Shown piece after piece: positions 2,562 to 27,592 of a stretch of DNA of 56,770 bases (the stretch's first letter is position 1; each line of letters opens with the position of its first letter). A program made the translations under genes and the position numbers. The DNA comes from a virus (Duplodnaviria > Caudoviricetes), in IMG/VR virus record IMGVR_UViG_3300032893_000054, positions 1 to 56,770 of that record; one strand, given 5' to 3'. Below the pieces are notes generated by a model, which worked only from the letters and a program-made list of their open reading frames with translations, had not been told where the DNA came from and searched no databases.

Positions 2562-2917
2562 TGCCGGAGGGACTGATTGCGCTGCTGCCTGCCCTGATCC
2601 CGGCCGCGACGGCTGGCACCGAGGTCGGACTGCAACTGTCCGGGGCGCTGACTCCCAGCACGTCCAGCGGCCCGACGCAGCAGCAACTCCAGCAACAGCA
2701 GCAACAGCAGCAGCAGGCACTGACCACGCAGGAGCAGGCCGCGTTCAAGCATGCCGCGCCGGACGCGCAATCGCAGACCGGCGGGGCGCTGTCGGACCCG
2801 TCGTTCGCGGCCATGGTGGCGGAACTCTCAGGCTCACCAGCGGACGTGGGCCTCGCGCAGCAGACATTGTTCGGCAGCACGCCGGGCCTATCGTCGAGCA
2901 ACGCAGGAGGATCGTAA
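2561..2917 (+). CDS. Putative internal virion/ejection protein (Gln/Ala-rich)
   Basis: TGATG coupling; hydrophobic N-terminus; poly-Q tract; synteny. Confidence 0.5.
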   Translation: MPEGLIALLPALIPAATAGTEVGLQLSGALTPSTSSGPTQQQLQQQQQQQQQALTTQEQAAFKHAAPDAQSQTGGALSDPSFAAMVAELSGSPADVGLAQQTLFGSTPGLSSSNAGGS

Positions 2918-3531
2918 TGCCGGACGCACTCTCCCAGATCGGATCGTTCTTCACCTCCGGCGCAGGCAAGGCTGTCGAAGGCGGCGCGGCTGCTGGGACC
3001 GGGCTGATCCAGAACCTCCTCGCCAATCGCGAAGCTACGAAGAAACAGAACTTCGTCGAGAGCCTGATCACCAACCCGGCCAAGTTCAGCCAGTACGTCG
3101 CGTCGTTCGAGAAGCCGCTGACCGCTGGCCTGACCGCCGACATTTCGCGGCAGACGGATGCCTACGGCGCCGAGCGTGGCCTCGGCTCCTCCCCTGCGAT
3201 CATGAAGGACGTGCTCGCGCAGGCACTGGCCCCGTACTACCTCCAGCAACAGCAGATGGCGCAGCAGCAGGCGCTGCAGGGGCTCGGGATCTACGAGCAG
3301 TCGCCGACGACGAAGCCGATCGACGTATCCTCGATCCTCAAGGCGATCATGATGGGCGGCAAGACGCCCCTCCCACCCGGGCCGCCAACCGCGGACCCCG
3401 GGACCAGCGTGCTTCAGCCGTCCTACATGCCCGGTAACGCACCGGTGCCGCCACCGTACTTCGATCCTAACGCGACAGGCCAGCTCCCCAGCCCGTCGTT
3501 CGAAGCTGACTCCACGGGGCTATTCTCATGA
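2917..3531 (+). CDS. Putative DNA ejection protein
   Basis: Gly/Ala-rich N-terminus, Gln-rich helices, AERGLGSS motif; synteny. Confidence 0.55.
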   Translation: MPDALSQIGSFFTSGAGKAVEGGAAAGTGLIQNLLANREATKKQNFVESLITNPAKFSQYVASFEKPLTAGLTADISRQTDAYGAERGLGSSPAIMKDVLAQALAPYYLQQQQMAQQQALQGLGIYEQSPTTKPIDVSSILKAIMMGGKTPLPPGPPTADPGTSVLQPSYMPGNAPVPPPYFDPNATGQLPSPSFEADSTGLFS

Positions 3532-4598
3532 GCGCCTTCCTCACTTCCCTCGCCTCCGTCGCCGACCAGTACGGCCAGGCGAAGGAGTCCGCGCGGCAGG
3601 AGAAGCAGCAGATCGCCGAGAAGGCCCAACGCATGGACGTCGAGCAAGCCTATCTACAGTTGGCTCGGCAGGCGGAGGCGCGGCAACGGGAATCGGAGCA
3701 GGCGCGGATCGCTCAAGGCGACATCATCAAGGTCGGCAATCGGCTGTGGTCCGTATCCAAGGGCAAGTTCATCGACCCGCAGCAACCTGACCCGATGATG
3801 CACCTCCGCGAGTTCATAAAGACTCTCCCGCCGGATATCCAGAAGGGAGCCACGGCACGCGCGCAGGCCATCGCGGAGCAGGATCCGAACGACCCCAAGG
3901 GAGTGATCACCGAGGTCATGCGGTACGCGGACGAGGCCCAACGATTGGCACAGGCCGAAGCCAACCGACGTGAGGATACCAAGACGCGCCATCAGGAGCA
4001 CGAAGAGGACGTCAAGAACCAGCACGAGTTCCAGCAGCAGCAACGCCGTGAGCTAGAAGCCTTCCAGCGCAACATGGTCGACTGGCGTCTGCAGGAAAAG
4101 GCCAAGCAGATGAACCCGCAGGAGCGTCAGATCTATGACTCCGTCCGCGGCATGGAGCCCATGATCAATCGCACCGTCACCTTCCTCGAACAGACGAAGG
4201 ACGCATCCGGCAAGCCGCTGAAGGATGAGAACGATCTCGTGTTTGGGAACCGCTCAGCGCTGATGCAGCACTTGCGGTTCAAGGGATACCAGTTCGGCCA
4301 ATCGCAGGAGGCAGCAACGCAGCAGCTCATCAAGAATGCCGCCGCGCTGCAGATCATGGGAGCCGCGCCGTGGCGCAACATCGCTGGACGCTCCAAGTAC
4401 AGCTACGAGGTCATCATCCAGCACCTGCCGCGGCCGACGGACACGCCCGGCCAGCTCTATGACAAGATCACATGGCTACGGGACAACGTGATCCCGGACG
4501 TGAAGCAATCGCTGGCGGGGTATGAGACTCCGGGCGGCAGCGGCAGTGTAGGTGGCGCTGGAGCGTCGGATTCCGATCCTCTAGGAGTGCTCAAGTAA
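3528..4598 (+). CDS. Putative DNA ejection protein (helical, charged)
   Basis: Coupled start; coiled-coil character; ends in DPLGVLK; synteny. Confidence 0.55.
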   Translation: MSAFLTSLASVADQYGQAKESARQEKQQIAEKAQRMDVEQAYLQLARQAEARQRESEQARIAQGDIIKVGNRLWSVSKGKFIDPQQPDPMMHLREFIKTLPPDIQKGATARAQAIAEQDPNDPKGVITEVMRYADEAQRLAQAEANRREDTKTRHQEHEEDVKNQHEFQQQQRRELEAFQRNMVDWRLQEKAKQMNPQERQIYDSVRGMEPMINRTVTFLEQTKDASGKPLKDENDLVFGNRSALMQHLRFKGYQFGQSQEAATQQLIKNAAALQIMGAAPWRNIAGRSKYSYEVIIQHLPRPTDTPGQLYDKITWLRDNVIPDVKQSLAGYETPGGSGSVGGAGASDSDPLGVLK

Positions 4599-6487
4599 TG
4601 GCCACACAGCCTCTTACCGTAGATCAGTTCGCAGCGTCGATCAAGGCTAAGTACCCTCAATACGACTCGATTCCAGACGCGCAACTGGTGGAAAAGATTG
4701 TGGCGAAATATCCACAGTATAAGTCCCGGATCGGTGGAGCGGCACCACAGCCTCCCGGAGTGCCTAGCGCCCCGCCTATCCCGTTCGCCGACCGTGTGAT
4801 CCAACGGCTCAGTGAGAACGCGAAGGGCGTAGCGCAGATGCCTTCCGACATCATCACCGACGCCCGGTCGCGCTACGACGCGCGTCGCGGCAAGGAATTC
4901 GGCCCACTTAATGCTGCTCACTCGGCGTTCGAGGCGGTGGAGTCCAAGGGAGTCGAGCCTGCACTGCAGGGACTCTACTCTGTATCCACTCCGGGGCTGA
5001 TCGGTCGTATGTCGTCGAAGGAAGACCCTGCCATCACCGCCGCTGATCTGGGCACGTTCTTCGCCACCAGCGGCGAGGAGCCTGTCCGTGGTGCGCTTGA
5101 GGGTGGTGCCAAGCTACTCGACAAGATTCTAGGCAAGGTAGGCGGCGCGACCCGCATCCTCGGACAGGAGATGGCTGGGGCAGGTAAGGAACCTGTCTAT
5201 CTAGAGCGCCTGCGTCGATTCGCAGTGGCGAATGAACGCTTGGAGCGCTACAAAGGCGACGTGGATAGCGTGATCAAGGAGAACGCGCAACGACTGCAGG
5301 AACACTCCAGCAAGGCCCGTGAGGCGCAAGCGGTGTACCAGAAGGAACTAGCAGACTATCAGCAAGCCACGGCGGATAAGAAGGCTGCGCATGCTGAGAA
5401 GGTGAAGGTGGCTCGTGATGAGTGGGTGCAGAAGGCCTACGAGGCCAAGCGTCTACAGGCCCAGCACGATAGCGCACAGGCCCAACTCGACACCATTAAG
5501 CGTGGGCAGGAGGCCTACGCCAAGATCGTCAAGCAAAACGTAGACTCTACCTACGCTGCCGTGAAGGGGAGTCTCGATCAGCGCTGGAAGGCGGTCAACG
5601 ACACGGTGGGCACGACCACACCCATAAATTCCGTCGCCGTTCGGGACGCGATCGAAGCGGCCAAGGAAAAGTACCTGATGGGTGCACCAGAGAGCCTGAA
5701 AGTCTTCAACGATCTCACGCGCCAGATGCAAGGCCCGGAACAATTGGACGCTGCGTCTGGAATCGAGCAATCCCTGCGCCCGCTTACGTGGGGCGAGGGA
5801 CGGGTGCACTACTCCGCGCTCGGAGACAAGATGTATTCCGGCGAACTCCCCGGCAACGTCTATCACGCGCTCGGCGCCGTGCGTGATGCGTTGGACAGGC
5901 AACTCAGTGACGTTGCTAAGGCTCGCGGCGCAGGCAAGATGTACGACTCCGTTCGCGCTGACTGGTCGCGCTTCATGGACGACTGGCGCGACATGCGATC
6001 TATCTCAGTCGGTGGCAGCCCCTTAGCCCGCGTGATGCGTGCACAGGATCCCGGCTTCGTCGCGGCGCAGATCACAGGCAAGGCGGGAGAGCGCATGGCA
6101 GCTACGCTGGGCCACTACAAGCAATTCGGAGGCAATCCGGAAGCGGTATCCAAGTACCGTGCGCTGGGCGACCGCGCCAAGAGCGTCCCCAAGGTACGCG
6201 TACCTGCTGCGCCGGGGAAACTGGAACTACCTCCCGAGCCTAAGACAGGCGAAGCGCCAACGCCAAGCACTGTCAAGGCTGCCAAGCTGAAGCCTGCGCC
6301 TCGATTCGAATTACCTAAGGAAGTTGATCCGGTTGAAGTGCGTCGACGCAAGTTGGCGGAGATGGCCGGACGACCGTTCCGATTCTACGATCTGTTCCCA
6401 CCGTACCTGATCGAGCACTTGGCGGTGAAGAGTCCTGCCATCCGGGAGTGGCTGGCCACACAGACCCGACAGGAGTTGAAGCCATGA
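4598..6487 (+). CDS. Putative large DNA ejection/internal virion protein
   Basis: 629 aa, helical; N-terminal AKYPQY duplicated; last gene of the ejection block. Confidence 0.55.
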   Translation: MATQPLTVDQFAASIKAKYPQYDSIPDAQLVEKIVAKYPQYKSRIGGAAPQPPGVPSAPPIPFADRVIQRLSENAKGVAQMPSDIITDARSRYDARRGKEFGPLNAAHSAFEAVESKGVEPALQGLYSVSTPGLIGRMSSKEDPAITAADLGTFFATSGEEPVRGALEGGAKLLDKILGKVGGATRILGQEMAGAGKEPVYLERLRRFAVANERLERYKGDVDSVIKENAQRLQEHSSKAREAQAVYQKELADYQQATADKKAAHAEKVKVARDEWVQKAYEAKRLQAQHDSAQAQLDTIKRGQEAYAKIVKQNVDSTYAAVKGSLDQRWKAVNDTVGTTTPINSVAVRDAIEAAKEKYLMGAPESLKVFNDLTRQMQGPEQLDAASGIEQSLRPLTWGEGRVHYSALGDKMYSGELPGNVYHALGAVRDALDRQLSDVAKARGAGKMYDSVRADWSRFMDDWRDMRSISVGGSPLARVMRAQDPGFVAAQITGKAGERMAATLGHYKQFGGNPEAVSKYRALGDRAKSVPKVRVPAAPGKLELPPEPKTGEAPTPSTVKAAKLKPAPRFELPKEVDPVEVRRRKLAEMAGRPFRFYDLFPPYLIEHLAVKSPAIREWLATQTRQELKP

Positions 6488-6672
6488 GCAAGCGCCGCGC
6501 CAAGAAGTCCGGAGTCAGCAACAAGATCGCCAAGCTCGTCCGCGAAGGGAAGACGCCTGAGCAGGCTGCGGGCGAGGCCTACGGCATGGAGCGCGAGGGA
6601 CGGCTCACGCACGCCGGAGGGTATATTCGCTCGTCCGCCAAGCGCCGCCGCCGAAAGGGATCACGCACATGA
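6484..6672 (+). CDS. Small basic protein (62 aa, MSKRRAKKSG...RRRRKGSRT)
   Basis: AGGAG RBS; ATGA overlaps at both ends; NKIAKLVREGKTPEQAAGEAY resembles small basic phage head-module proteins. Confidence 0.65.
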   Translation: MSKRRAKKSGVSNKIAKLVREGKTPEQAAGEAYGMEREGRLTHAGGYIRSSAKRRRRKGSRT

Positions 6673-9600
6673 TCAAGAGACTGGCATTCCTGTTACTCCT
6701 GCTGTCGGGCATCGCCGCCGCGCAATCCACCGGTATCCTGAGCCCCGGCGGCGTCGGCGTGTCCTGCAACGCGGTCACGGCGGCCTCGGCGAACAACCCC
6801 GGCACCGCCGGCGGCTGCACCTCGTTCAACCTTCTGGCCAGCGGCGGCCAGCTCCCGGGATTCTACACGTGGACGGTCTCGACCACGGGATCCCCATCCG
6901 GCTTGAGCGTCAAGCTGATGGGCTCGGTCGACGGAACCAACTGGACGCAGGTCGATGTCGTCAGCAGCGCTACGACGACCAACGACGGGCCGTATGCGTA
7001 TCGATTCCTCGGCTGCATCGTGGCCACGCTCAGCGGCGGCTCCTCACCGACAGCCACCTGCCTCATCTCGGTCGGCACGTCCGGCACGGGCGGAGGCGGC
7101 GCGGGGATCACGATCACCACGGTGGCTGGCCTAGCGTCCGTGTCCGGCAAGAAGAACGGCACCATCGCGACCGTCACCGACGGCGCTTCAGCGTCAGACT
7201 GCACCACCGGCTCCGGCTCTACCGTCGTCAACTGCCAGTACAACGGCTCCGCATGGTCGCAGGTCGTAGCAGCCTCCAGCGGCTCGACCGCCTTCTCCGC
7301 GCTTACCACGTCCACCAACACTACCGCCACGCTGACCTGCGGCACGGGCTGCGCCATCACGACCTCGGGCTCGGGCACCAACACGGCGACCAACACGACG
7401 GGCGTCAATGGCGCCGCGGTCCCAGCATCGAAGACCATCGTCGGCACGAACGGTAGCAACCAACTGGTAGACGCTTCTAGCGCTACCCTAAACAACAACA
7501 CGAACGGCACCGCCGCCAGCCTCAGCGCGATCCTTGCCAACACTCTGGGCGGCACCGGCGCCAACTCCTCCACCTCGAACGGTGTGGCGCAGGTCTCCTC
7601 GGGCACGTGGTCCTTCTCGACCGGACTGGCGAACGGCACGACCGCGACCACCCAGACCACCGGCGACAACTCGACCAAGATCGCTACGGACGCGTTCGTC
7701 GCATCCAGCATCCTGCCCACCGGCACGCAGGGCTACTCCGTATTCAACACTTCCGGCTCGACCGCCTACGCGCCTTCCTCGGCAGCGGGCGTGGATAGCA
7801 CCCAGTTCAGCGGCACCGACCGTTGCGCAGCGGCGAAGACCGACTGGACGACCAACGGTGCCGTGTCCCCGGTCAACATGGTCGGCGAGCAATCGAACGA
7901 GACGACGCAGCTCCTCACCTGCTCCAGCAACCCGTTCCCGGTCGTCGCGGCGTTCGGCGGCAGCGACACGAACAATGGCGGCGTCTTCTGGCTGCCGCAG
8001 GGCGCGCTGAATCCCGCATTCGGGCTGCAGGTAGGCATGGACGGCGTGCTCATCCAGGGCGTTGGCATGGAGGCCAACAACTCCGTCCGCCAGGGCAGCT
8101 TTATCATTCCGCACTCAGGATGGAGCAGCTTCTCCGCGCCAGCCGCGACCTGCTCGCCGGGATCCGGAGGCGGCGCGGTCTGCACGAACTACAACCCGTT
8201 CCTGCTCGCGCTTGGTCCGGTCGTCGGCTACACCTCGACCTATACGACAGCCAGCGGCCCCTACAACACGAAGATCAAGAATGTCTCCTTCGATTGCCAG
8301 CAGATCGCCGGACTCGGCGGCGTCAGCGACGTGGGGCAGGAACTCTCTGGCTTCGACACCGCGACGATCCTGAACTGTCGCACCGTCAGTTTCTTCCAGC
8401 AGTTCGACACAGCGGATCAGGTAGCGATCCAGCATCTCTACGTGCGCCATCCCAACACCTCCTCGGTTGAGGCGAATACGACCCCCGCCACCGGGCTGTC
8501 ATGGTTCAACGACACCAATGGGAACGTCCTGCTCCAGTGGACGAACTCCCCGACCGCGACTCCAGGCTGCGGTATGACGGTGCTGGTCAGCAACGCTTCC
8601 GCCGGCGGCACGCACTCGAACACCATCAACGGGCCGTGGCAGGTATCCGGCCTCGTCGACGCTTCCGGCAACCTGCTCATCTGCGACCGTACCGCAGGGA
8701 CGGCCAGCGACCTGAGCGGACACTTTAGCGGCACGGCGAAGCAGGTCATCTTCGACACTCCGCTGACCCTCGCCGACTCTCAGTCCACGAACACCAACGC
8801 CATCGCGGAATTCTTCACCACCGGCATGGACGTGCAGGCGACCTCCGCCCGCACCGTGCCGGACATGACGATCACCAGCAACATCACAGACTTCACGAAT
8901 GGTATCTATGCCAGAGTCACCACGTCCGGCACGACGATCACCTACTCCAGCGGCAATCACTGGCTAACCTCTACTTCAGGCACGGTCCATATTAACGGCG
9001 TCGGGTACACGATCTCCGGCACTTGCGGCTCGACCTCAACCTGCACGACCGTCCAGACGCTCCCGACCTATGCGACTCCAGTGGTATTCGACTCCGGGAT
9101 GCAGGCTCCGTGGTGCGAACTCACGGTCAGCGGCAACGCGGTCAGCTACGACGGCACGCACGTGGAAGAAGCCGAGAACGGTATCTGCGTCGGGCTGGAG
9201 CAGCAGACGATCGGCCTGACCATGACGAACGTCAGCCCGGGCGTGTACCTGCAGAATGGCATCCACCTATTCTCCACGTTCGGCGCGTGCCTCGGATGCA
9301 CGTTCCGGCCGTCGCAGGTCTACACGGGCTCGATCTCGGTCTACAACTCCTTCGTAGACGACTTCAATCACAACACGCTCACCTCCGCCAACAATCCCTA
9401 CGTGACCTACATGACGGGATGGAGCGGCATCGTCGGCGACGTGGAAGTGTGGGCGCAGACCTGTTCGGAGATGACGAACGGGTGGTGCAACTCCGGCTCC
9501 GGCAGCGCGGCGACGAAGACGTACTACAACAATGGGGTCGCGCAGATCATCCTCAACGGCACTGGGACCATCGCGCTTTCCGGTTGCGCAGGCATGTACA

Positions 9601-11135
9601 TCAAGGCTGACGGCGGTGGCTGCGGTTCACCTGCTCTCCCGACGGCCACGGCCAGCGGACAGACCTCTGTCGCCACCGGGCCGGGCACGACCTACACCGC
9701 GCAGAATCCCGGCTTCAACGATTCCACGACGGTGAACTCCGGCAGCGCATACACGCTGGCCTGTCCATCTACGACGCAGGGGGACAACGCGCACGCGGTG
9801 CATTTCGCGTCTGGTGCCAACACTTCCCCGCTCATACCCGATTCCACAGCCAGCGGCTGCGCCAGCACGATTTACACAGTATTCATCGATAGCGGCGGGC
9901 CATACACGTTCGGCCGCACCAACTCCAGCGACACGTTCACGACCTACGTGAACGGGTTTCTGGCTACCACGGGCGCGGCCAGCTTTCAGGTCGCCGCCGG
10001 ACAGTACTTCACGATTAACAATGGCGCTACGAACCTGTGGGAGGTTCGGATCAGCGTGGCCATGCCGCTGCTGGCCGCCGACACGTCCGGCTCCGGCACA
10101 GCACAGTCCGCGAATACGATCCCGGTGTTCACGCCTCAATCCGGCAACTGCATCATCTACACCACTACGACCACGAACAGCAGCACCGGGCTGACGGTCA
10201 ACATCAACAGTCTGGGAGCCAAGTCGGTCGCGGTCGCGGGGACATCCGGCTACACCACCACGCTGACTACATCTCCGCACTCGATTCCGGCCAGCACGCC
10301 GATCCCGCTGTGTTACAACGGCACGCAGTGGGGCGCGGTACAGAACGGGTTGCTGCCGACCGCGTCCGGCGGACCCGAGAGTTCGATCACCGCCTCTGCC
10401 GCGTCGAACACGATCGCTGAGAACGCTGCAGGAGACTGGATCGCTCGCAACGGCGTCGAGACCGCCGCGCTCACCGCGCCGTGGTCCTTCAGCGATGCCA
10501 ACTCCTCCAACAACAACACGAACATCGGCCTGCTGGTCGGCGCTACCGGAACCTCCACCGGCGGTATCGGGCTGCTGGTCTACGACGTCAGCGGGACGGG
10601 TGACATCTTCCGCGCCTACAGCGGCGGCTCGGTCACATCGAACGTGTACACAGCAGGAACGCTCGAAGCCAACGTCACTGCTGGCGGCGTGGTCAACGCG
10701 GCGACCGGGTTCCGGATCGCCAACGCCGCAGCCAGCGGGCACTTCCCCTGTGGCAATGGCACTAACTATGTCGATTGCACGAATGTCACAGGCGCGACCT
10801 ATGCTACCGCCACCAAGTGCGCAGCCGCAGGCAGCGCTGCGAATCCTTCTGTAGCCTCCTGCTCGGCAGCGCCAGCAGGCTCGTTCTCCTGCGCCACCAA
10901 CGCCTCCGCCGGAACCTGCACGATCAACACTTCGGCAGTCACCGCGAGCAGCGCGATATTCGTGCAGCCGGATTCCAGCCTCGGGACGTTGCTCTCGGTG
11001 ACCTGCAACACCACCGCAGACACGGCGCTCACCGCGCCTCGTGTATCGGCCCGCAGCGCTGGCACCAGCTTCACGATCACGCTAGGCACATTCTCTACTA
11101 ATCCGCTGTGCTTCAACTACTGGGTGGTGAACTGA
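6669..11135 (+). CDS. Very large fibre/adhesin-like protein with N-terminal signal peptide
   Basis: 1488 aa, S/T/G-rich, about 38 Cys by manual count. Fibre motifs LANTLGGTGA and TTQTTGDNSTKIATDAFV; beta-helix-like middle; starts MIKRLAFLLLLLSGIAAA|QS. Confidence 0.7.
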   Translation: MIKRLAFLLLLLSGIAAAQSTGILSPGGVGVSCNAVTAASANNPGTAGGCTSFNLLASGGQLPGFYTWTVSTTGSPSGLSVKLMGSVDGTNWTQVDVVSSATTTNDGPYAYRFLGCIVATLSGGSSPTATCLISVGTSGTGGGGAGITITTVAGLASVSGKKNGTIATVTDGASASDCTTGSGSTVVNCQYNGSAWSQVVAASSGSTAFSALTTSTNTTATLTCGTGCAITTSGSGTNTATNTTGVNGAAVPASKTIVGTNGSNQLVDASSATLNNNTNGTAASLSAILANTLGGTGANSSTSNGVAQVSSGTWSFSTGLANGTTATTQTTGDNSTKIATDAFVASSILPTGTQGYSVFNTSGSTAYAPSSAAGVDSTQFSGTDRCAAAKTDWTTNGAVSPVNMVGEQSNETTQLLTCSSNPFPVVAAFGGSDTNNGGVFWLPQGALNPAFGLQVGMDGVLIQGVGMEANNSVRQGSFIIPHSGWSSFSAPAATCSPGSGGGAVCTNYNPFLLALGPVVGYTSTYTTASGPYNTKIKNVSFDCQQIAGLGGVSDVGQELSGFDTATILNCRTVSFFQQFDTADQVAIQHLYVRHPNTSSVEANTTPATGLSWFNDTNGNVLLQWTNSPTATPGCGMTVLVSNASAGGTHSNTINGPWQVSGLVDASGNLLICDRTAGTASDLSGHFSGTAKQVIFDTPLTLADSQSTNTNAIAEFFTTGMDVQATSARTVPDMTITSNITDFTNGIYARVTTSGTTITYSSGNHWLTSTSGTVHINGVGYTISGTCGSTSTCTTVQTLPTYATPVVFDSGMQAPWCELTVSGNAVSYDGTHVEEAENGICVGLEQQTIGLTMTNVSPGVYLQNGIHLFSTFGACLGCTFRPSQVYTGSISVYNSFVDDFNHNTLTSANNPYVTYMTGWSGIVGDVEVWAQTCSEMTNGWCNSGSGSAATKTYYNNGVAQIILNGTGTIALSGCAGMYIKADGGGCGSPALPTATASGQTSVATGPGTTYTAQNPGFNDSTTVNSGSAYTLACPSTTQGDNAHAVHFASGANTSPLIPDSTASGCASTIYTVFIDSGGPYTFGRTNSSDTFTTYVNGFLATTGAASFQVAAGQYFTINNGATNLWEVRISVAMPLLAADTSGSGTAQSANTIPVFTPQSGNCIIYTTTTTNSSTGLTVNINSLGAKSVAVAGTSGYTTTLTTSPHSIPASTPIPLCYNGTQWGAVQNGLLPTASGGPESSITASAASNTIAENAAGDWIARNGVETAALTAPWSFSDANSSNNNTNIGLLVGATGTSTGGIGLLVYDVSGTGDIFRAYSGGSVTSNVYTAGTLEANVTAGGVVNAATGFRIANAAASGHFPCGNGTNYVDCTNVTGATYATATKCAAAGSAANPSVASCSAAPAGSFSCATNASAGTCTINTSAVTASSAIFVQPDSSLGTLLSVTCNTTADTALTAPRVSARSAGTSFTITLGTFSTNPLCFNYWVVN

Positions 11136-13396
11136 TGCGGCAGCTCCTCTTCGTCCTTGGCTTCGCGCTACTGTGTCCGTACTCGTGGGCGGTGTCCTAC
11201 GTCTCGGCCTCACACACGGTATGCCTGCAGACGACCGCGTCCGCCGGAGTGGCTTGCACGCTTGGGGCAGCGACGACTGCGGGCAACACCGTCGTCGTGG
11301 GCATGTCGCTCAAGACGCCGACGCGCACCATCACGAACATGGTGGGTTCGGCTGCATCGGCTTTCTTCATGCAGATCACGCCTGTCACGCCGAATGGTTC
11401 CAGCGATGGCGCGGTGATCCTGATCTGCTTCAGTTGCGCCTCGCTCACCACGGTCACGCCGACGTTGAGTGGGACCAGCATCTACGCCCTTTCCGTGGAA
11501 GAGTACGCCAGTGTGGGAGCGATTGGCGGCTGGGTCTCGGCGACGGGAAGCTCCACGACGCCATCCGTGTCCATCACCACGACCGACAGCAACAACTGGA
11601 TCGTGGCGGTCACTTCCAACCTGGGTAACGCAGGCATCCCCACAGCGAACACGGGCAACCTGCGGGACGCAAACCGCACCGGCACGACCTCCAGCCACGT
11701 CGCGATCGGCGCCTGTGATAACACAGTAGCCTCGCCGGGGAGTGTGACCTGTTCCGACACAATTACCAGCGGCGTGTGGGCGGCGGTGGGAGTCGAGCTG
11801 CGCACCGTGTCGACGCCTGTGGCCTGTTCTGCTCCGTGTCCCGCGCTGGTGCAGTATGCCCAGTGGGGATCAAACGACGGCGGGACACCAGAAGCGGCAC
11901 AGTTCATAGGGAGCCTGCCACAAGCCACGCTATCCAATAACCTGCTCGTCTGTGGCACTGGATTCGACAATTCCGACGGGTCACACTCGGTAGCGTTCTC
12001 CAGTTTCACCATCGACGGAACGTCATTCACGGCTGGACCGACCTCGAACGACGGGACGCGCATCCTCGGGTTGTATTACATCGCTGGTATTGCAGCAGGG
12101 AAACAGAAGCTGGACTTGGAGTTGACGGCCACCACGTTCGACATCCAAGTGTGGTGTGCCGAATTCTATGACGTAGCCACATCCACACCTGTAGACGGCA
12201 CTTCTACGAGTGCATCTGGTATCACCGGGCCATTGGTGCAACCGGGAAGTATCACGACGACTGCCGACAACGATCTTATATTTGTGGCGGGGGTGAACGA
12301 CGCTACTCTTAGCGCCGCCCACGTTGCATCAGCCTATTCTCCTGCCGGAGGAAGCGGCGGTACAGGAACGCAGCGGCTGACAATGCTCGGCGATACGCGG
12401 CGGTTCGGCCCTTTCGCGTATTACCTGAACCAGCCGACGCACGGTGCGATCAACCCTGCGATGTATATCGATCAGGCGACGAAAGACACGTGGGGCATCG
12501 GGGCGATCGCGTTCAAGTCCGCCTCCGCTGGTACAGCTCCGTCTGGGATGTATATCGCCCGAGACATCGTAGAAATCCCCAACGCGACGACCTACCGGAT
12601 CGACTCTCCCTGCGTCGGCAACCTGCTGGTCGCGCTGGGTTCCACGCAGCCCTCCCAAGCGAAGATCACGGGCATCACCGACGCCTCGAACAACACTTAT
12701 ACGTGGATCGGCTCCAGCACCACGCAGCCGCAGATCCTGTACGTCGGCAACGCCCTCTGCAACAACCTGAACTACCGTCAGGCCACAATCACGATGAACA
12801 GCGTCGCCGTGGTAGACCCGATCCATATCTACGATGTCGTTGGGGCGAACGCTACTCCGCTGGACACGTCGGTGACGACCAGCACTTCCGGCGCCTCGGC
12901 GTCTGGTGGGCTGGTGAACTCGGGCAGCCAGAATCAGGCGCACTACGCGGTGTCCTCGGTCACCTGCACGAACAGCGCCAACTCGAACTCGGTGATGAAC
13001 TTTACTCCATCCACGAGCAGCGGGATCGCGTTCGTGGTAGAGAACAATGGGCAAGGGCCGGAATGCGGAGCCTCCAGCACGAATAACGTTCCCGACATGG
13101 CGTGGTTCGGCGGTGAAGATGACGCCTGCTGCGGAACGCTGGATTCATCGTCCGGCTACGGACACGTAGCGTATTCGAGCACAAGCGCGTGGACGTGGAC
13201 CTTCAACTGGGCCAACTGCCTAGCGGACACGCCGAACACAGGCTGCGCTTCAGGTACCGGGCCGGGGAACGCTCCGGGGTCAAGCTATTCCATGTCACTG
13301 GCGGCGTTCAAAGCGGCCGGCGGTGGAGCGAGCGGCCACTGTAACGGCTGCGAGTTGTCGCAGGTAGCCATGCCACAGAAAGAGGTGGGACAGTGA
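11135..13396 (+). CDS. Multi-domain beta-sandwich adhesin-like protein with signal peptide
   Basis: ATG at 11135 overlaps the upstream TGA; starts MRQLLFVLGFALLCPYSWA|VS; about three repeated domains, each ending in a W..A.ELR/AFK-type strand. Confidence 0.65.
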   Translation: MRQLLFVLGFALLCPYSWAVSYVSASHTVCLQTTASAGVACTLGAATTAGNTVVVGMSLKTPTRTITNMVGSAASAFFMQITPVTPNGSSDGAVILICFSCASLTTVTPTLSGTSIYALSVEEYASVGAIGGWVSATGSSTTPSVSITTTDSNNWIVAVTSNLGNAGIPTANTGNLRDANRTGTTSSHVAIGACDNTVASPGSVTCSDTITSGVWAAVGVELRTVSTPVACSAPCPALVQYAQWGSNDGGTPEAAQFIGSLPQATLSNNLLVCGTGFDNSDGSHSVAFSSFTIDGTSFTAGPTSNDGTRILGLYYIAGIAAGKQKLDLELTATTFDIQVWCAEFYDVATSTPVDGTSTSASGITGPLVQPGSITTTADNDLIFVAGVNDATLSAAHVASAYSPAGGSGGTGTQRLTMLGDTRRFGPFAYYLNQPTHGAINPAMYIDQATKDTWGIGAIAFKSASAGTAPSGMYIARDIVEIPNATTYRIDSPCVGNLLVALGSTQPSQAKITGITDASNNTYTWIGSSTTQPQILYVGNALCNNLNYRQATITMNSVAVVDPIHIYDVVGANATPLDTSVTTSTSGASASGGLVNSGSQNQAHYAVSSVTCTNSANSNSVMNFTPSTSSGIAFVVENNGQGPECGASSTNNVPDMAWFGGEDDACCGTLDSSSGYGHVAYSSTSAWTWTFNWANCLADTPNTGCASGTGPGNAPGSSYSMSLAAFKAAGGGASGHCNGCELSQVAMPQKEVGQ

Positions 13397-15807
13397 AATA
13401 CCTGACACTCATCCTCGCGCTGTCCTGCGTGGCGCAGGCGCAACTCTGGAATGGGCTGCTATCCAACGCGCGCGCGGGGAACACTTGGTCCACGGCCGGA
13501 GCCGATCCGACGGTAGAATATGCCACCCGAACCACTTGTACCACGCTGGCAGCAGGCTCCACTGCAGCCCAGATCAACACGGCGATCAAGAATTGCGCGG
13601 CGGCACATTTAGCGGATGCCGGAGGAGTCGTAGTGTTGTCGGCGGGAAGTTACTCTATTGGCACGGCTGGCATCGACTTCTCCCACAACAATTGCGGCAC
13701 CGTTTCACAGGGTTGCTCAAACGTTACCCTGCGCGGAGCTGGAGCCGATCAGACAACGCTTACCCTATCCAACTCGACAACCAGTTGTCCGGAGTCGGGT
13801 GGAGTAGACATCTGCATCGCTCCTCAAGGCACAGGGCTAGGATATGACGGATCGACGGACAACATCGCCAGTTGGACTGCCGGATACTCTCAAGGCACAA
13901 CCTCGATCACGATCAACAGTTTCTCGAAAGGGGCGATCGGCAATTGGTCGGTTGGAAGCATTGTGTTCCTCGATCAGATGGATGTAGCGAACACGCCTTA
14001 CCCCACTACCGGACTTCTAATTTGCAATCAGGGAAACTGCGGACAAGGAAACGTAAGCGGAAGGCCGAATCGCTCTCTGACGGAGCCGCAAATCATCACT
14101 TCGGTCTCTGGCTCGGGGCCGTGGACGATTGGCATCAAGCCCGGAATCAGGACGCCGAACTGGTTTACCAATGCGAGCACTTGCGCGAACGGAAGTGGCG
14201 TGGGAAGCTCCAGCCCGTGCAATCCTCAGATATGGGGTAACTCTGGCAAGGCGATCTCCGGCGTCGGGCTGGAGAACATGACTCTGGATCTGTCCAGTGC
14301 TCTCAGTAACTTCTCCGTGGTGCAGTGTTTCGGCTGCTACAACGTGTGGATTCGCGGGATCAAGTTCATCGACACGCACGGAGACACGGAGACCGGGGCG
14401 AACGGCTTCTACAATTTCTGGCCTCTGCAATCCACCAACGTAACGTACCGGGACAACTATTCGCAGAACTCTCCACCAGTCTCGAACTACTATTCCATGT
14501 CCTGCTGGACGAGCGGCGATGAACTTTATGAGAACAACATTGACGTTCACAAACCGTTCAACTTCATGGCGGAGGGATGCATAGGGTCGGTCAGCGCCTA
14601 CAACTTTGCTTTGGATATGTATTACACGCATTGTCACGGTTGCGGTACGGATACAGGCTGGCAACAGAACTCGAACTATCGTCACGGTGGGACGGACATG
14701 CTCGGCCTCTTTGAAGGGAATATCGGGACAGGTGTGATCGGTGATGAGGTGTTTGGAGCCTCCGACCTATACACCTCGTTTCGTAGCTTCTATTCAGGGC
14801 GCGACCCGAACGGCGGTGCTCCAGCAGGAGGAAAGACGGAGCAGACAACGGCGGTCCTTCTGTATCCCCCCAACCGTTTCTGGAACATCATCGGCGACGT
14901 TCTAGGGACACCGAGCTACCACACGACTTACGTCTGCGCTCCTCCGAACGTGTCCGGGAGTTGCGCGAACAACAATGCAGGAAACTTCGTTGCCGATATT
15001 TACTCGCTCGGATATCCGGATGGATATGCGGGCTCCAATGATTCCTACACCAGCAGTAGCATGGTCAAGTGGGCTAACTTTGACACGGTGACGAACGCTG
15101 TCAGGTATTGCAGTCCCGCGGATCCTAGCTTCGCATCGGCACCTTGTAGCAGCACGTCGGAAGTGGCAACCAGTCTTTCGGACGGATTCTCAAACGTTGA
15201 CCCGTATTCTGGCTTAGGCCATACACTGCCCAACTCTCTGTTTCACGCATCGCAACCGTCATGGTGGCCTGCGTCGAAAACATGGCCCATCATCGGGCCG
15301 GACATCACGGGTGGCAATGTCGTGCGCTGCACGAGCGGCACCTACTCCGGGAACGTGGTTCCGAACTCCAGTTATTGTTCTGGAGGCACGAGCGCTTCGG
15401 TAGGAGCAGGCACGGTCTACAGTAACCCCGCGATGGACTGCTATTTCAACACGATGGGCGGGGCGCCGAACGGGGGATTCGAGAATCTGACGTTCAATGC
15501 CGATACCTGTTACCCGACCGGAGCAAGTACCTACATGATCACCGTGTCCTCGATCGTCGGCCACGGCACGATCACCGACTCCCAAGGGCTCATCAACTGC
15601 CCCGGCACCTGCACGACGTCCGCCGCGTCCGGCTCCGACGTGCTCACCGAGTCGCCGGGCACGGGATACACGTTCACCTCGTGGGGCGGCGGGACGTGCT
15701 CCGGCTCGGCGACAACGTGCACCGTCAGCGGGCCAGGGCCGGTCAGCGTGACTGCAACATTCACAGCGAACCCGGTGACACCGGCAGCGGTGCCGTATCT
15801 GCAGTAG
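13393..15807 (+). CDS. Parallel beta-helix (pectate-lyase-like) protein with signal peptide and C-terminal InlB/Flg_new-like repeat domain
   Basis: Starts MKYLTLILALSCVAQA|QL; INTAI..GGVVVLSAGSY..NVTLRGAGADQTTL; C-terminal PGTGYTFTSWGGGTCSG..CTV..VTATFT. Confidence 0.7.
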   Translation: MKYLTLILALSCVAQAQLWNGLLSNARAGNTWSTAGADPTVEYATRTTCTTLAAGSTAAQINTAIKNCAAAHLADAGGVVVLSAGSYSIGTAGIDFSHNNCGTVSQGCSNVTLRGAGADQTTLTLSNSTTSCPESGGVDICIAPQGTGLGYDGSTDNIASWTAGYSQGTTSITINSFSKGAIGNWSVGSIVFLDQMDVANTPYPTTGLLICNQGNCGQGNVSGRPNRSLTEPQIITSVSGSGPWTIGIKPGIRTPNWFTNASTCANGSGVGSSSPCNPQIWGNSGKAISGVGLENMTLDLSSALSNFSVVQCFGCYNVWIRGIKFIDTHGDTETGANGFYNFWPLQSTNVTYRDNYSQNSPPVSNYYSMSCWTSGDELYENNIDVHKPFNFMAEGCIGSVSAYNFALDMYYTHCHGCGTDTGWQQNSNYRHGGTDMLGLFEGNIGTGVIGDEVFGASDLYTSFRSFYSGRDPNGGAPAGGKTEQTTAVLLYPPNRFWNIIGDVLGTPSYHTTYVCAPPNVSGSCANNNAGNFVADIYSLGYPDGYAGSNDSYTSSSMVKWANFDTVTNAVRYCSPADPSFASAPCSSTSEVATSLSDGFSNVDPYSGLGHTLPNSLFHASQPSWWPASKTWPIIGPDITGGNVVRCTSGTYSGNVVPNSSYCSGGTSASVGAGTVYSNPAMDCYFNTMGGAPNGGFENLTFNADTCYPTGASTYMITVSSIVGHGTITDSQGLINCPGTCTTSAASGSDVLTESPGTGYTFTSWGGGTCSGSATTCTVSGPGPVSVTATFTANPVTPAAVPYLQ

Positions 15808-15826: not shown

Positions 15827-16144
15827 ATGGATCAACTGATTGGAATGCTAGGGCAGTTCATCATGGCGCACCCACACTGGGCGATCGTGGCGCTGGTGGG
15901 GAGCTGGGTGCTGTCGAATGTGGTCAGCGCCATGCCGTCGCCGGACCAGGGAAGCGGCAAGGGGTACAAGTTCCTGTTCACGCTGGGCCACGGGATGATG
16001 GGATCGCTGGGACGGGTGATCCCATGGCTGCGGCTGCCGTCGGACCCGTCGCGCAAGGATCCATCGTTCTTCGGCAAGCCGGACGCGACGGGGGGTCAGA
16101 GTATAGCACAACCTCCGACTCCTCCCGAGGCACCTAAGCCGTAA
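15827..16144 (+). CDS. Small membrane protein, holin candidate
   Basis: AGGAGG RBS; hydrophobic helix WAIVALVGSWVLSNVVSAMP followed by an amphipathic segment; follows the fibre genes. Confidence 0.5.
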   Translation: MDQLIGMLGQFIMAHPHWAIVALVGSWVLSNVVSAMPSPDQGSGKGYKFLFTLGHGMMGSLGRVIPWLRLPSDPSRKDPSFFGKPDATGGQSIAQPPTPPEAPKP

Positions 16145-16202
16145 TTCCTGAAAGTGTAACAAGAAGTGGCAGCCGTCATTCGTCTGGAGAGGAAAGGGTA
16201 AA

Positions 16203-16757
16203 GTGATGACGTGGGGCCTCAGCCCGAAAACGTGGGAGTGGGTTGGTTACTTGGGCTGGTGCTTCTCTATCTACGCAGCCTATCTGTTCGTGTCGACGAT
16301 CTTCGGCGGGAGCAGGCCGAAACACGCCGAATCGTGGATGAAGTTTGTGCAACGGTTGTCGAAATGGAGAGATCGGCTGAAGGAGAAGGGTAGGGCGCAT
16401 CAGGTGGCGATTGCGAACCTCATCGCGCTCCTGTGTCTGGTGATCATCGTCGGCGGGAGCTGGGGCAAGGCCTTCCCGGTGGTCGAGGAGCACAACGTGA
16501 CGATTCTGGCGCGGCTCGGGGATGGAGATTTCGCGTACCGTAGCGACGAGGAGCCAGGCGGAGGCGAGTTCCGGCCGTGCACGACGGACGTGGAGGCGGG
16601 CGTGGACGTGCTCAACCTGCTGAAGGGCGCGGTAGGGTACACTGCGGAGCACGCCCGGTGGGAGGAACGAGGGACGTGCAAGAGCATCCGGCGCGCGGAT
16701 CTGGGATTCTGGTTCAGAGATGAAGCGACTAACTTCGAATACAGGAGAGCACAATGA
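16203..16757 (+). CDS. Membrane protein (two hydrophobic segments plus soluble domain)
   Basis: Hydrophobic stretches at about aa 12-33 and 68-82. Confidence 0.55.
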   Translation: MMTWGLSPKTWEWVGYLGWCFSIYAAYLFVSTIFGGSRPKHAESWMKFVQRLSKWRDRLKEKGRAHQVAIANLIALLCLVIIVGGSWGKAFPVVEEHNVTILARLGDGDFAYRSDEEPGGGEFRPCTTDVEAGVDVLNLLKGAVGYTAEHARWEERGTCKSIRRADLGFWFRDEATNFEYRRAQ

Positions 16758-16939
16758 GCAACGGTGGTCCCCCCAACAAATTCCCGCAACAGGTTGACCT
16801 GACCAACGTTCCACCCGGCCAGCGCGCTGCCGTGCTGGGCGCGGCATGGCAAGACTACTACGACGTTTACCATCAGTGGCCGAACACGTGGGTCACGGTG
16901 GGCGATATCATATACCTCGGAGGCTACGGACGGCCATAA
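16754..16939 (+). CDS. Hypothetical protein
   Basis: AGGAG RBS; ATGA overlap. Confidence 0.55.
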   Translation: MSNGGPPNKFPQQVDLTNVPPGQRAAVLGAAWQDYYDVYHQWPNTWVTVGDIIYLGGYGRP

Positions 16940-16976
16940 CCCACAACCCTCATCTCCGCTCAGAGACGAGACAACG

Positions 16977-17669
16977 ATGATCATCGATCCGAATAACGAG
17001 TTCAACTCCGCGTGGTTCGTGGCGCCGTGGAACCCCGGCATCGGGCCGGTCCAGCCGAACGTGGCAACGGTCACTCCCGCGTCCGCCGGCAACCCGAACC
17101 TGCAAGTGTATATCGACGGGCCGAGTGGTTACAGCAACATGCTGGCGGCGCTGCATCGGCCGTTCATGCCGCTGTCGAACCTCGGCAACCTGTCCAAGGT
17201 GGCGTTCTCGTTTTCCTTCAACCTGATCACGGACAAGAACATCGGCCTGCTGCAGGCGCTGGAGTTCGAGGTGCGTCCGGTGTTCATCGACCAGCACGGT
17301 CGGTGCTGCAACGTCAACAACTGCATGCAGATGAATTTCGTCAATCCCAAAGGCGCGATCCAGGCGTATGCGAGCCCCACGAACGTGTGGGCGGACACAG
17401 GCATCAGGATACCGCCGCTCGAGCCCAAGGAGACGTACCCGATCCAGGTGAACTACGTGACGGACATGCTGAACGGATTCAACAGCACGCCGTCGGTCAC
17501 CATCATGGGGAAGACGTATCCACTGCCGGCGATGTTCCAGAACGTGCCTGCTCCGATCATGAGCCCGCCGTGGACCAGCGCCATGTACATGCAGATTCAG
17601 ATGGACTTGGCCAAGGCGGGCGGCAAGGTGATGACCGAGTACAACGATATGAACATAAATTGGAACTGA
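16977..17669 (+). CDS. Hypothetical beta-rich protein (possibly lectin/glycoside hydrolase-like)
   Basis: 230 aa, GC3-rich codons, QALEFE motif; the fold is a guess. Confidence 0.55.
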   Translation: MIIDPNNEFNSAWFVAPWNPGIGPVQPNVATVTPASAGNPNLQVYIDGPSGYSNMLAALHRPFMPLSNLGNLSKVAFSFSFNLITDKNIGLLQALEFEVRPVFIDQHGRCCNVNNCMQMNFVNPKGAIQAYASPTNVWADTGIRIPPLEPKETYPIQVNYVTDMLNGFNSTPSVTIMGKTYPLPAMFQNVPAPIMSPPWTSAMYMQIQMDLAKAGGKVMTEYNDMNINWN

Positions 17670-17682
17670 AAGAGGAGGGCGT

Positions 17683-18051
17683 ATGCGTCGTCGAGTAGCG
17701 ATAGCAGTGCTCGGGTGTGGCATGGCGCTGGGGGCGGGATGCCATTCCAGTGCAATCAAGGCTCCGGTGCCGATCTCCGGATCCGTCAACCAGTTCGACT
17801 CTGACACCTACCGCGGGCTGATGGATGCCGAGGCGGCCATCAACTCACTCAAGGCGGATATCGCTGTGGGCAGGCTCACGGAGACGCCGACGATCAAGAC
17901 GGCGCTGAACCAGGCCATCACGGACTACAACGCCGCGAACGCGCTGTGGCAGGCGTACCACGCGACCGCGGGCGCCACGCAGCAGGCGGCGGTACAGGCC
18001 GCCATGACCAAGCTGAATGGAGACGTCACCGCGATCGGAGGTGCCAAGTGA
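17683..18051 (+). CDS. Lipoprotein (possible spanin-like lysis protein)
   Basis: GAGGAGG RBS; MRRR plus hydrophobic core plus lipobox LGAG|C; helical remainder. Confidence 0.6.
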   Translation: MRRRVAIAVLGCGMALGAGCHSSAIKAPVPISGSVNQFDSDTYRGLMDAEAAINSLKADIAVGRLTETPTIKTALNQAITDYNAANALWQAYHATAGATQQAAVQAAMTKLNGDVTAIGGAK

Positions 18052-26263: not shown

Positions 26264-26357
26264 TTCCGCCCCTCGTTCATGGCCTCTCCCTCGCTTTTTA
26301 CAACACGTACCACGTAGGGCTGATGTGCCGCGACAATGTAATCACTAGGCGTGTTCT

Positions 26358-26582: not shown

Positions 26583-26676
26583 TGTCCCTTCCTCCCTCAG
26601 CCCTCACTGCGATACGAAATATGAAACCAGCACAGCACCCGCCCGCACCAACCGACAATCGGTCGTGAACCGCGTG

Positions 26677-27519: not shown

Positions 27520-27592
27520 TGTTTCCTCCATTGAGTACAGCGGGAATCGGCTGCCATCCACTTCAGGAATTGAGGCTTACTAAGGCTCATAA

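Follow-up and report, generated by a model that had tools for sequence, protein, structure and literature searches.

Secretion leaders and paired cysteines on the fibre and tailspike-type proteins of a soil podophage suggest folding outside the cytoplasm

Results

Genome and gene map

The window, that is, the whole stretch of 56,770 nucleotides analysed here (IMG/VR record IMGVR_UViG_3300032893_000054), is a complete podophage genome of 56.6 kb with a T7-like gene order. Its unique length is 56,643 bases and its terminal repeat is 127 bases long; because the repeat sits within the nozzle gene, that gene is split across the window ends. The phage is short-tailed, comes from soil and probably has a host among the Acidobacteria. 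The features on which the analysis turns are the following.

1-2157, + strand: nozzle gene, 3' part (865 aa in total; 8 Cys, no leader)
2561-6487, + strand: four genes for internal (ejection-type) virion proteins in the position of T7 gp14-16, assigned by synteny only
6669-11135, + strand: p1, fibre protein of 1488 aa (ORF and translation)
10800-11132, + strand: C-terminal module of p1, about 105 aa, Pfam K1-lyase_C (HMM)
11135-13396, + strand: p2, 753 aa from ATG (ORF and translation)
13393-15807, + strand: p3, 804 aa, start codon GTG (ORF and translation)
15827-16144 and 16203-16757, + strand: two small membrane-protein genes right behind p3, holin-type candidates judging solely from position and hydrophobicity
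17683-18051, + strand: ORF with a lipoprotein-type leader and a lipobox-like Cys, a spanin-type candidate judging solely from its position
51144-52133, + strand: major capsid protein (MCP), phrog_9953, 1 Cys, no leader
53369-54889, + strand: p4, 506 aa, directly upstream of the adaptor gene
54902-56179, + strand: head-to-tail adaptor, SU10_adaptor-like, 1 Cys, no leader
56203-56770, + strand: nozzle gene, 5' part, which resumes at window position 128

The three large consecutive ORFs of p1, p2 and p3 are present in the ORF list as the first-pass annotation had them, and together with p4 they total 10,665 bases, in line with its figure of over 10 kb and equal to 19% of the unique genome. Overlaps of 1 base between p1 and p2 and of 4 bases between p2 and p3 suggest translational coupling; the p2 frame is also open from a GTG at 11108. 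The internal proteins encoded at 2561-6487 contain no cysteine and no Sec-type leader, and they matched no family in Pfam and PHROG scans; for the one at 4598-6487, a single-protein search of viral contigs returned no relatives.

Leaders of p1 to p4 and their conservation

Leaders were sought in the 56 called ORFs with an in-house rule, not SignalP, that combines Kyte-Doolittle hydrophobicity, charge and the -3/-1 rule. The signal peptidase I layout was taken as a basic n-region, an h-region of 7-15 residues and small residues at -3/-1, about 15-30 residues from the start. All four of p1 to p4 have this Sec layout under the in-house rule, and the only other ORF with an n-h-c leader is the lipoprotein-type one at 17683-18051; the cores of these five leaders span 9 residues, have a mean Kyte-Doolittle value of 2.8-3.3 and lie within the first 15 residues. 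The leader of p1 (6669-6722) has 18 aa and is followed by Gln, that of p2 (11135-11191) 19 aa followed by Val, that of p3 (13393-13440) 16 aa followed by Gln, and that of p4 (53369-53431; H9 = 3.33) 21 aa followed by Gln. The earlier reading of the p1 to p3 N-termini as leaders with a basic n-region, a hydrophobic core and a small-x-small site is thus borne out by the scan, as is the statement that the capsid, adaptor and nozzle proteins have none; the portal and internal proteins likewise lack one. Two further ORFs have a hydrophobic stretch that does not fit a leader, at 2561-2917 with an acidic n-region and at 45721-46194 where the stretch begins only at residue 19. The rule's background was 2/32 ORFs of Myxococcus phage Mx8, 0/23 of phiKMV and 1/118 adaptor homologues.

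Two other export routes were rejected. A Tat signal would combine an S/T-R-R-x-F-L-K motif with a long n-region and a weakly hydrophobic h-region; inspection by eye found no RR in p1 to p3, and p4 has SRR, yet its leader is short and very hydrophobic. Type IX secretion cargo, which would call for a C-terminal sorting domain of the Por_Secre_tail or CHU_C type and a Bacteroidota host, does not suit p1, since its C-terminal module matches K1-lyase_C alone, with no T9SS family at E <= 1 in 23/23 module members, and the genomes matched by the module are those of Acidobacteriota.

A survey of related phage contigs, proposed beforehand as a check, found the leaders kept in homologues. The rule flagged 14/16 matches of p1, 10/14 of p4 and 98/150 of the p3 matches listed, the adaptor homologues serving as control. 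All eight p1 relatives inspected (8/8) start with a leader. The p1 C-terminal module is present at 36 viral loci, with 7/36 frames leaving the contig; by eye, 28/29 complete frames begin with an n-h-c leader, and that of L032 is long and atypical. In a wider survey of 1217 distinct ORFs of at least 200 aa from 153 viral sequences, 195 carry leaders, and 149 of these 195 have Gln at +1, a figure inflated because the cleavage-site score rewarded Gln at that position. Across homologues the sequence of the leader varies and its character is conserved.

Cysteine content and parity

The earlier estimate of about 38 cysteines in p1 proved exact (2.6%). The totals for p2, p3 and p4 are 21, 29 and 18, and one cysteine each of p2 and p3 lies within the leader, so that after the leader the four proteins hold 38, 20, 28 and 18, all even numbers. 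Among other virion proteins, MCP and adaptor have 1 each, the portal 5 and the nozzle 8. The description of these cysteines as closely paired holds in part: some pairs are 3-8 residues apart (224/228, 786/792, 874/877 and 932/940), and others are far apart.

Parity follows the leader in the 153 viral sequences. The mature cysteine count is even in 171/195 leader-bearing ORFs and odd in 24/195. Among ORFs that contain cysteine, it is even in 167/191 with a leader versus 310/681 (46%) without one (Fisher odds ratio 8.3, p 3e-27), and the median cysteine content is 2.18% versus 0.70%. Parity was also tallied on separate sequence sets, and it is weaker in the p3 family, with even counts in 68/98. 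In the C-terminal module of p1, two Cys pairs are nearly invariant, and the two members of a third are either both retained or both missing. Even counts and covariation of pairs are what is looked for in a disulfide-bonded extracytoplasmic protein.

Architecture of p1 and p4

The N-terminal domain of p1, about 120 aa, is common to P0009 and to the fibre-slot ORFs of two related loci (L094, L097); a stalk rich in Thr/Ser/Gly and a body common to P0002 belong to the same protein. LGGTGA and DNSTKIATDAFV, which the first-pass annotation called classic fibre motifs, are both found in p1. Neither the 100-residue motif stretch nor full p1 has a tblastn match in 50,697 GenBank phage records. Scanned alone, the C-terminal module matches PF24146 K1-lyase_C with 35 bits (E 2e-8, gathering cut-off 27), and so do 23/23 aligned module members (alignment A1); the match is absent when full-length p1 is scanned. 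Family scans (Pfam and PHROG) that took in full-length p1, p2 and p4 plus ten sub-pieces yielded nothing apart from Flg_new_2 in p3, and the module profile, run against PDB sequences, picked up only antibody light chains at chance level (E >= 0.13). The module was confirmed in five bacterial genomes, 5/5 of them Acidobacteriota, all five of which also encode Thioredoxin_4 (DsbA-like) proteins. These matches link the phage clade to Acidobacteriota.

Behind its leader the p4 protein has a conserved transthyretin-like domain (residues ~22-145, with four conserved Cys) that is followed by a variable body; similarity among its relatives extends over about 140 residues from the N-terminus and is lost beyond that point. 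The full model is poor (pLDDT 39.5), residues 24-143 being the usable part. The fold that the N-domain matches is a very common beta-sandwich, with a best Z of 8.6, and phage fibre N-domains match at Z 6.7-7.1, a range that the tool labels a possibly common arrangement. Co-folding of the adaptor and three p4 N-domains (residues 22-165), run without controls, gave a score of 0.00, which is uninformative either way.

In most matches this p4-type anchor domain stands straight behind the leader, and in leaderless relatives, encoded at the equivalent gene position in related phages, it stands straight behind the Met; the leaderless homologues begin at the residue after the predicted cleavage site. 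The identical start of the anchor with or without a leader suggests that the leader is an add-on, removed to give an equal mature start. Three leaderless relatives of the anchor domain (L130, L067 and P0031) have no cysteine; in others, all with truncated frames, there are 8 (L114) or 9 (L123/L124), so cysteines are not strictly tied to leaders, and disulfides could also form after release. In both p4 and the p1 N-domain, the first 120-140 mature residues are common and the remainder divergent, within a structural operon, as in a modular fibre.

Could the N-terminal segments serve something other than Sec export, as a membrane tether, oligomerisation helix or pro-piece of proteins that assemble in the cytoplasm and whose cysteines oxidise after release? 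Classical tailed-phage assembly is cytoplasmic, and the cysteines of some leaderless relatives are in keeping with such a reading. Signal peptides predicted on some phage capsid proteins have also been ascribed to prohead protease cleavage in a study of prophages (PMC10367356). We nevertheless regard it as quite improbable that p1 to p4 are not exported, since the segments show a complete n-h-c layout, including small residues at -3/-1 and mostly Gln at +1, vary in sequence and keep their character, stop exactly where leaderless homologues start, are accompanied by even cysteine counts and are seen in no other virion protein.

p2 and p3

The closest Atlas clusters of p2 consist of viral proteins about 250 aa long, and p2-like genes adjoin p3-like genes at related loci (L049 and L050/L051). 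The body of p3 is modelled as a right-handed parallel beta-helix like that of tailspike depolymerases (pLDDT 79, pTM 0.85). The model has 51 PDB matches at E <= 0.001 with phage tailspikes at the top, the best being 7w1c (E 3e-10) and others 9k4a, 4ru5, 4ru4 and 4y9v; TM-scores to tailspikes are modest (0.3-0.44) and identities 9-12%. BFVD tailspikes match as well, and a C-terminal InlB B-repeat lies at residues 722-793. The entry 7w1c is a Klebsiella phage tailspike, a K1 capsule lyase whose K1-lyase_C domain is common to the p1 C-terminus and whose fold is near p3; phi297 gp61, LKA1 gp49 and AP22 gp54 are also beta-helix tailspike depolymerases like the p3 model. To our knowledge, these tailspikes lack a signal peptide and are assembled in the cytoplasm. 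They possess an N-terminal particle-binding domain, whereas the model and relatives of p3 show no separate N-terminal domain, the mature chain entering the beta-helix directly. No recognisable anchor domain was found in p2 either.

No tblastn match to p3 was found in the 50,697 GenBank phage records. Its family comprises 3767 metagenome clusters and occurs in only 2/151 Acidobacteriota genomes searched and in none of the five examined (0/5), which points to a family carried by phages and not to a housekeeping family of the host; capture of a host housekeeping exoenzyme was rejected on these counts.

Gene order and fibre identity

The podovirus clade contains more than 100 adaptor relatives. 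The order in 80 adaptor-clade loci is terminase, portal, scaffold, MCP, (fibre), adaptor, nozzle, internal proteins and fibre; the first ORF behind the internal proteins has a leader at 17 loci and none at 4, by our own count over the adaptor-clade listing. The T7 gp17 fibre and the P22 gp9 tailspike also have their genes behind those of internal core proteins. These appendages join last, on the finished head and tail, in the case of P22 also in vitro, but they are leaderless and attach in the cytoplasm. A PHROG scan and phage tblastn found no sequence relation with either. Membership of the T7-like (Autographiviridae) gp17 fibres was rejected: there is no PHROG or Pfam fibre match, only the gene order is T7-like, and no RNA polymerase was found among the large ORFs scanned.

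The assignment of p1 to p4 as fibre or tailspike-type proteins is supported in silico, and no other recognisable receptor-binding candidate was found in the genome. Several ORFs remain unannotated, for example 16977-17669 in the late region, so that a leaderless receptor-binding protein elsewhere in the genome is possible.

Discussion

Export and oxidative folding of p1 to p4 are well supported in silico by the conserved leaders, the even cysteine counts, the fibre or tailspike type of the proteins and the lack of another receptor-binding candidate in the genome. To judge from secretion signals and paired cysteines, the host-recognition gear of this phage probably folds outside the cytoplasm. 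A literature search, with most subscription journals outside its coverage, turned up no account of Sec leaders on the fibres of tailed phages; in a paper on Tunturi viruses, which are Acidobacteriota phages, a search by term found no mention of signal peptides or tail fibres.

The nearest likeness is Cellulophaga phage phi18:3 (NC_021794), a cultured podovirus. Its gp085-087 are encoded by three consecutive large late genes directly upstream of the lysis genes, have an n-h-c leader before Gln in 3/3 cases, as in p1, p3 and p4, and are assigned by the record to the virion or tail on the basis of MS/MS. None of nine other MS-listed phi18:3 proteins checked has a leader (0/9). The host belongs to another phylum, Bacteroidota, the phage is distant, neither p1 nor p3 having matched it in a sequence search of the phage collection, and the cysteines of gp085-087 are few (0, 1 and 3); co-purifying envelope material could be the source of the MS detection. 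The literature search found no paper discussing these leaders. Among other systems, pIII of filamentous phages (Inoviridae) is a receptor-binding virion protein with a Sec leader and periplasmic disulfides. Unlike the tailed phage described here, with which there is no homology, Inoviridae are extruded through the envelope without lysis. The exported phage lipoproteins (spanins, Llp and Cor) use host Sec before lysis. So do the signal-peptide and SAR endolysins of tailed phages, according to a published account (PMC7143992). Endolysins and these lipoproteins differ from p1 to p4 in being lysis or exclusion factors, not virion appendages, and in being small and not rich in cysteine.

An alternative that we consider unlikely accepts export and disulfide bonding and places p1 to p4 outside the virion, as free or envelope-bound depolymerases and adhesins that act on the capsule, EPS or LPS of the infected cell for receptor destruction, superinfection block or path-clearing for progeny. 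True receptor binding would then reside elsewhere, for example in the nozzle with inserted repeat domains, which is large (865 aa) and has extra domains. Such a role suits p2 and p3 best, as neither has a recognisable anchor domain; the beta-helix of the p3 family begins right behind the leader, and p2 and p3 occur as a pair. A precedent comes from Porphyromonas gingivalis prophages, in which five genes of unknown function have predicted Q-rule leaders that leave Gln at +1, in line with export practice in the host, and are read as host-surface modifiers; there these proteins have no link to fibres or virion assembly, and the host is one of the Bacteroidota (PMC10367356). Against a non-virion role, p4 and p1 are built like virion fibres, with a conserved anchor and a variable body, and occupy fibre slots of a conserved structural operon; related phages have a leaderless anchor domain in the same gene slot; leader-bearing proteins were detected by MS in virions according to the phi18:3 record; and p1 to p4 take up almost a fifth of the genome.

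It is slightly more improbable even than the absence of export that the proteins are routed two ways, with an exported share acting on the envelope and a cytoplasmic share, left by slow or saturated export, joining the particles. Other systems offer examples of a phage depolymerase that exists both free and bound to the virion, and under dual routing a fibre-like build and an enzyme-like p3 would no longer be at odds; nothing direct speaks for it. Its difficulties are that no internal start codon stands right behind the leaders of p1 to p4 and that a fold which depends on disulfides would not form correctly in the cytoplasm.

On balance we lean toward the reading that p1, p4 and probably p2 and p3 are receptor-binding fibres or tailspike-type polysaccharide depolymerases made as Sec preproteins, for which we propose a two-compartment route. 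In this model the leader would carry each chain across the inner membrane, where signal peptidase I would cut it off to leave Gln as the new N-terminus in three of the four proteins. In the periplasm the chains would fold and oligomerise, and all their cysteines would be paired by Dsb-type oxidoreductases of the host. In the meantime DNA-filled heads with adaptor and nozzle would be assembled in the cytoplasm, as usual. The two pools would join once the inner membrane is breached by the holin, or else at lysis; attachment at or after lysis is what the synteny of the fibre slot across the clade, the anchor domain with or without a leader and the phi18:3 record argue for indirectly. The fibres would dock through N-terminal anchor domains of the p4 type and the p1 type; p2 and p3, which have none, may be carried on other fibres or act as free enzymes.

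It is plausible, if a little short of probable, that a large guild of soil phages, the podovirus clade, builds its particles in two compartments, with heads and tails made in the cytoplasm and fibres processed by Sec and Dsb that snap on after holin action. If so, intracellular particles would be fibreless and non-infectious before lysis, and host Sec, signal peptidase and Dsb would be essential host factors of these phages and possible targets of defence. The export and disulfide machinery of the host would thereby become part of phage host range, and the stapling of fibres by disulfides would be an adaptation to soil that is acidic and rich in proteases. The same route may account for the failure of such fibres in cytoplasmic expression, in structural work and with engineered receptor-binding proteins. 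For annotation, a signal peptide would be no argument against a virion protein. A periplasmic branch would be added to the textbook, all-cytoplasmic morphogenesis of tailed phages.

Results

The first-pass annotation had described Sec-type leaders and abundant paired cysteines on large proteins in the tail-fibre position, mainly p1, p2 and p3, and every sequence detail that it gave, from leaders and cysteines to ORFs, was present on re-reading. Using a rule that combines a basic start, a strongly hydrophobic core within the first 15 residues and a small-x-small site, our own script found a leader, among the 56 called ORFs, only in these three proteins, in a further fibre-slot protein (p4) and in a lipoprotein ORF. 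Total cysteines in p1-p4 number 38, 21, 29 and 18; one lies inside the leader of p2, likewise of p3, and the mature proteins, counted after the predicted cleavage site, hold 38, 20, 28 and 18, every one an even number. Among the other virion proteins the capsid and adaptor have one cysteine each, the portal five, the nozzle eight and the internal proteins none. As controls, the same script flagged 2 of 32 ORFs in the high-GC phage Mx8, neither of them a virion protein, none of 23 in phiKMV and one of 118 adaptor homologues. The occurrence of leaders and cysteines together on the fibre-slot proteins is confirmed and lies far beyond chance. Because the p1/p2 and p2/p3 gene junctions overlap (TGATG and GTGA), p1, p2 and p3 are probably translated as a unit.

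Principal features of the genome (start or range, strand where noted, identity)
43956, terminase (family scan)
47140, portal (family scan)
51144, major capsid protein (phrog_9953, family scan)
53369, fibre-slot protein p4
54902, SU10-like adaptor (family scan)
56203, wrapping to 2157, nozzle
2561-6487, four internal proteins
6669, fibre-slot protein p1
11135, fibre-slot protein p2
13393, fibre-slot protein p3
18456-21203, minus strand, family-A DNA polymerase with UDG-type domain (family scan)

The late gene order is T7-like: portal, scaffold-like protein, capsid, p4, adaptor, nozzle, four internal proteins, p1, p2 and p3. A 127-base terminal repeat (56644-56770 identical to 1-127 of the 56,770-base IMG/VR virus record) falls within the nozzle gene, and because this gene is open from the window end through to its start, the sequence is a closed, complete genome; the "direct terminal repeat" resembles an overlap left by circular or permuted assembly rather than a physical genome end. 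The N-terminal domain of the polymerase belongs to the uracil-DNA-glycosylase superfamily (Pfam UDG, E 6e-16), and family scans also assigned a Dda-like helicase, a Sak4-like protein, a PD-(D/E)XK nuclease and a methyltransferase. Neither a tRNA gene nor a recognisable endolysin family was found anywhere in the genome. Directly downstream of p3, at 15827-18051, two small membrane proteins and then a lipoprotein-type ORF are candidates for a holin-spanin cassette. GC content drops from about 0.61 in the rest of the genome to 0.51-0.53 at 26000-30000, where hardly any ORF satisfies the third-position GC test; the stretch may be foreign DNA, or an early or regulatory part of the genome. The phage has no close cultured relative: its capsid protein matches two Myxococcus phages alone, Mx8 and Mx9, with 25% identity.

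Leaders recur among relatives of the fibre-slot proteins. Most of the 16 relatives returned by a p1 search have in common only the last ~105 residues (the C-terminal module; 64-88% identity), carried on unrelated bodies of 840-1971 residues; P0009 differs in that the N-terminal domain is the common part, and in P0002 it is the p1 body. All eight p1 relatives inspected have a leader ending before Gln. The module is present on 36 viral contigs, in seven of which its frame runs off the contig; by eye, 28 of the 29 complete frames have a clear leader, and L032 has a long, atypical one. Relatives of p4 agree over ~140 residues after the leader and diverge beyond. The p3 family comprises 3767 clusters at E <= 0.001 (403 at E <= 1e-30) and was found on 41 further viral contigs. 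Its listed members mostly open with a leader, after which the mature start is conserved; the script flags 98 of the 150 listed, and many of those missed are fragmentary or have gene calls that are too long.

For the adaptor 119 relatives were identified, and in the 80 viral loci taken the gene order is the same as in the window. A leader is present on the first ORF beyond the internal proteins in 17 of the loci that extend that far and missing from it in four, by a hand count from the listing that includes the near-duplicates L162 and L167. Two of the leaderless cases resemble non-coding frames, one is of no known type, and the fourth (L130:19443-20780) is a cysteine-free p4-type fibre with its Met directly at the anchor domain, as we term the N-terminal domain of p4. 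A profile of this domain matches 27 frames; in most it starts straight after the leader, and in L130, L067, L114 and L123/L124 it lies at the start codon with no leader. Since the domain begins at one or the other place, the leader is an extra segment ahead of an otherwise equivalent mature protein, and the same anchor domain would also serve fibres whose assembly has to be cytoplasmic. The coupling of leader and cysteines is not absolute, because L114 and L123/L124, in truncated frames, are leaderless yet hold 8-9 cysteines. The leaderless, cysteine-free anchor domains of L130, L067 (5008-5695) and P0031 constitute natural controls for this coupling.

Cysteine parity was assessed in three sets of viral loci, tested separately and then merged without duplicates (153 sequences; 1217 ORFs of at least 200 residues, 195 with a leader). 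Of the 195 leader-bearing ORFs, 171 have an even mature cysteine count; when ORFs without any cysteine are set aside, the even share is 167/191 with a leader versus 310/681 without (odds ratio 8.3, p 3e-27). Leader-bearing ORFs have a median cysteine content of 2.18%, leaderless ones 0.70%. In 149 of 195 the residue after the predicted site is Gln, a share inflated by a site score that favoured Gln. When the C-terminal module is aligned, two cysteine pairs show little or no variation, and a third has both positions filled or both empty. Such parity and pair covariation suggest disulfide-bonded proteins. The largest examples seen are two consecutive leader-bearing ORFs at L061:379-14840, the first with 2046 residues and 52 cysteines, the second with 2739 residues and 82 cysteines.

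Scanned alone, the p1 module is a K1-lyase_C domain (35 bits, cut-off 27; 23/23 members match), a domain that forms the C-terminus of a Klebsiella phage tailspike. For p3 the model is a right-handed beta-helix (pLDDT 79, pTM 0.85) whose top PDB matches are phage tailspike depolymerases, led by 7w1c (E 3e-10) and followed by 9k4a, 4ru5, 4ru4 and 4y9v, with TM-scores of 0.3-0.44 against such enzymes; it also matches viral models named tailspike or depolymerase. The p2 protein resembles viral proteins of ~250 residues, and p2-like genes adjoin p3-like genes in other phages. The main rival to the two-compartment assembly model discussed below is that some or all of p1-p4, p2 and p3 in particular, are enzymes that are exported but stay free. 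For p4 the fold is confident in the N-terminal domain only, a transthyretin-like beta-sandwich (best Z 8.6); its scores against fibre or neck-fibre N-terminal domains of Ur-lambda, cyanophage A-1(L) and phage XM1 (Z 6.7-7.1) concern a common fold and are not discriminating. That p1-p4 are exported, disulfide-bonded proteins of fibre type is well supported in silico, and we hold it to be very probable. Leader-bearing ORFs of ~210-260 residues stand beside large fibres in many loci (L049, L050/L051, L036, L055, L056, L088 and others) and may represent a conserved small partner of exported fibres; p2 looks akin to viral proteins of this sort.

The most conserved module peptide gave five confirmed matches in 185,579 species genomes, all in Acidobacteriota (Acidobacteriaceae MAGs and Terriglobus albidus DSM 26559). 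One match shows the same frame as a viral contig (L020, L039), which points to a provirus. DsbA-like Thioredoxin_4 proteins are encoded in all five genomes and a plant-type glutaminyl cyclase in one. The p3 family was detected in just 2 of 151 Acidobacteriota genomes searched and, save for an InlB-type repeat, in none of the five with the p1 module. In these Acidobacteriota-linked phage proteins the leader is as a rule followed by Gln at +1, a pattern also seen in three host-like ORFs of the T. albidus locus L041. The published "Q-rule" is described as specific to Bacteroidetes, and a term search of its paper returned no mention of Acidobacteria.

Discussion

The literature searched yielded no published description of Sec leaders on tailed-phage fibres. 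A P. gingivalis phage paper (PMC10367356) reports Q-rule leaders on five genes of undefined role, which it interprets as modifiers of the host surface, and a term search of the first paper on Acidobacteriota phage isolates returned neither signal peptides nor tail fibres. The only experimental hint that leader-bearing proteins become part of tailed-phage particles comes from Cellulophaga phage phi18:3, whose record annotates gp085-087 (L175:6892-12584) as virion proteins from MS/MS. All three have a Sec-type leader ending before Gln, and none of the nine other MS-listed proteins checked has one. Phage phi18:3 is distant from the present phage and its leader-bearing proteins are cysteine-poor. 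A Sec-type leader is also found on its gp091 (168 aa), encoded near the endolysin.

P22 tailspikes and T4 fibres are established cases of appendages that attach late and spontaneously. On the simplest reading, a two-compartment route, the fibres would be exported by Sec, lose their leaders to signal peptidase I and fold in the periplasm with disulfide formation. They would join particles built in the cytoplasm once the holin has opened the inner membrane, or at lysis. We regard this full model as the best explanation and as somewhat probable. It applies to known kinds of protein, tail fibres and tailspikes, but would imply an assembly route that has not been described.
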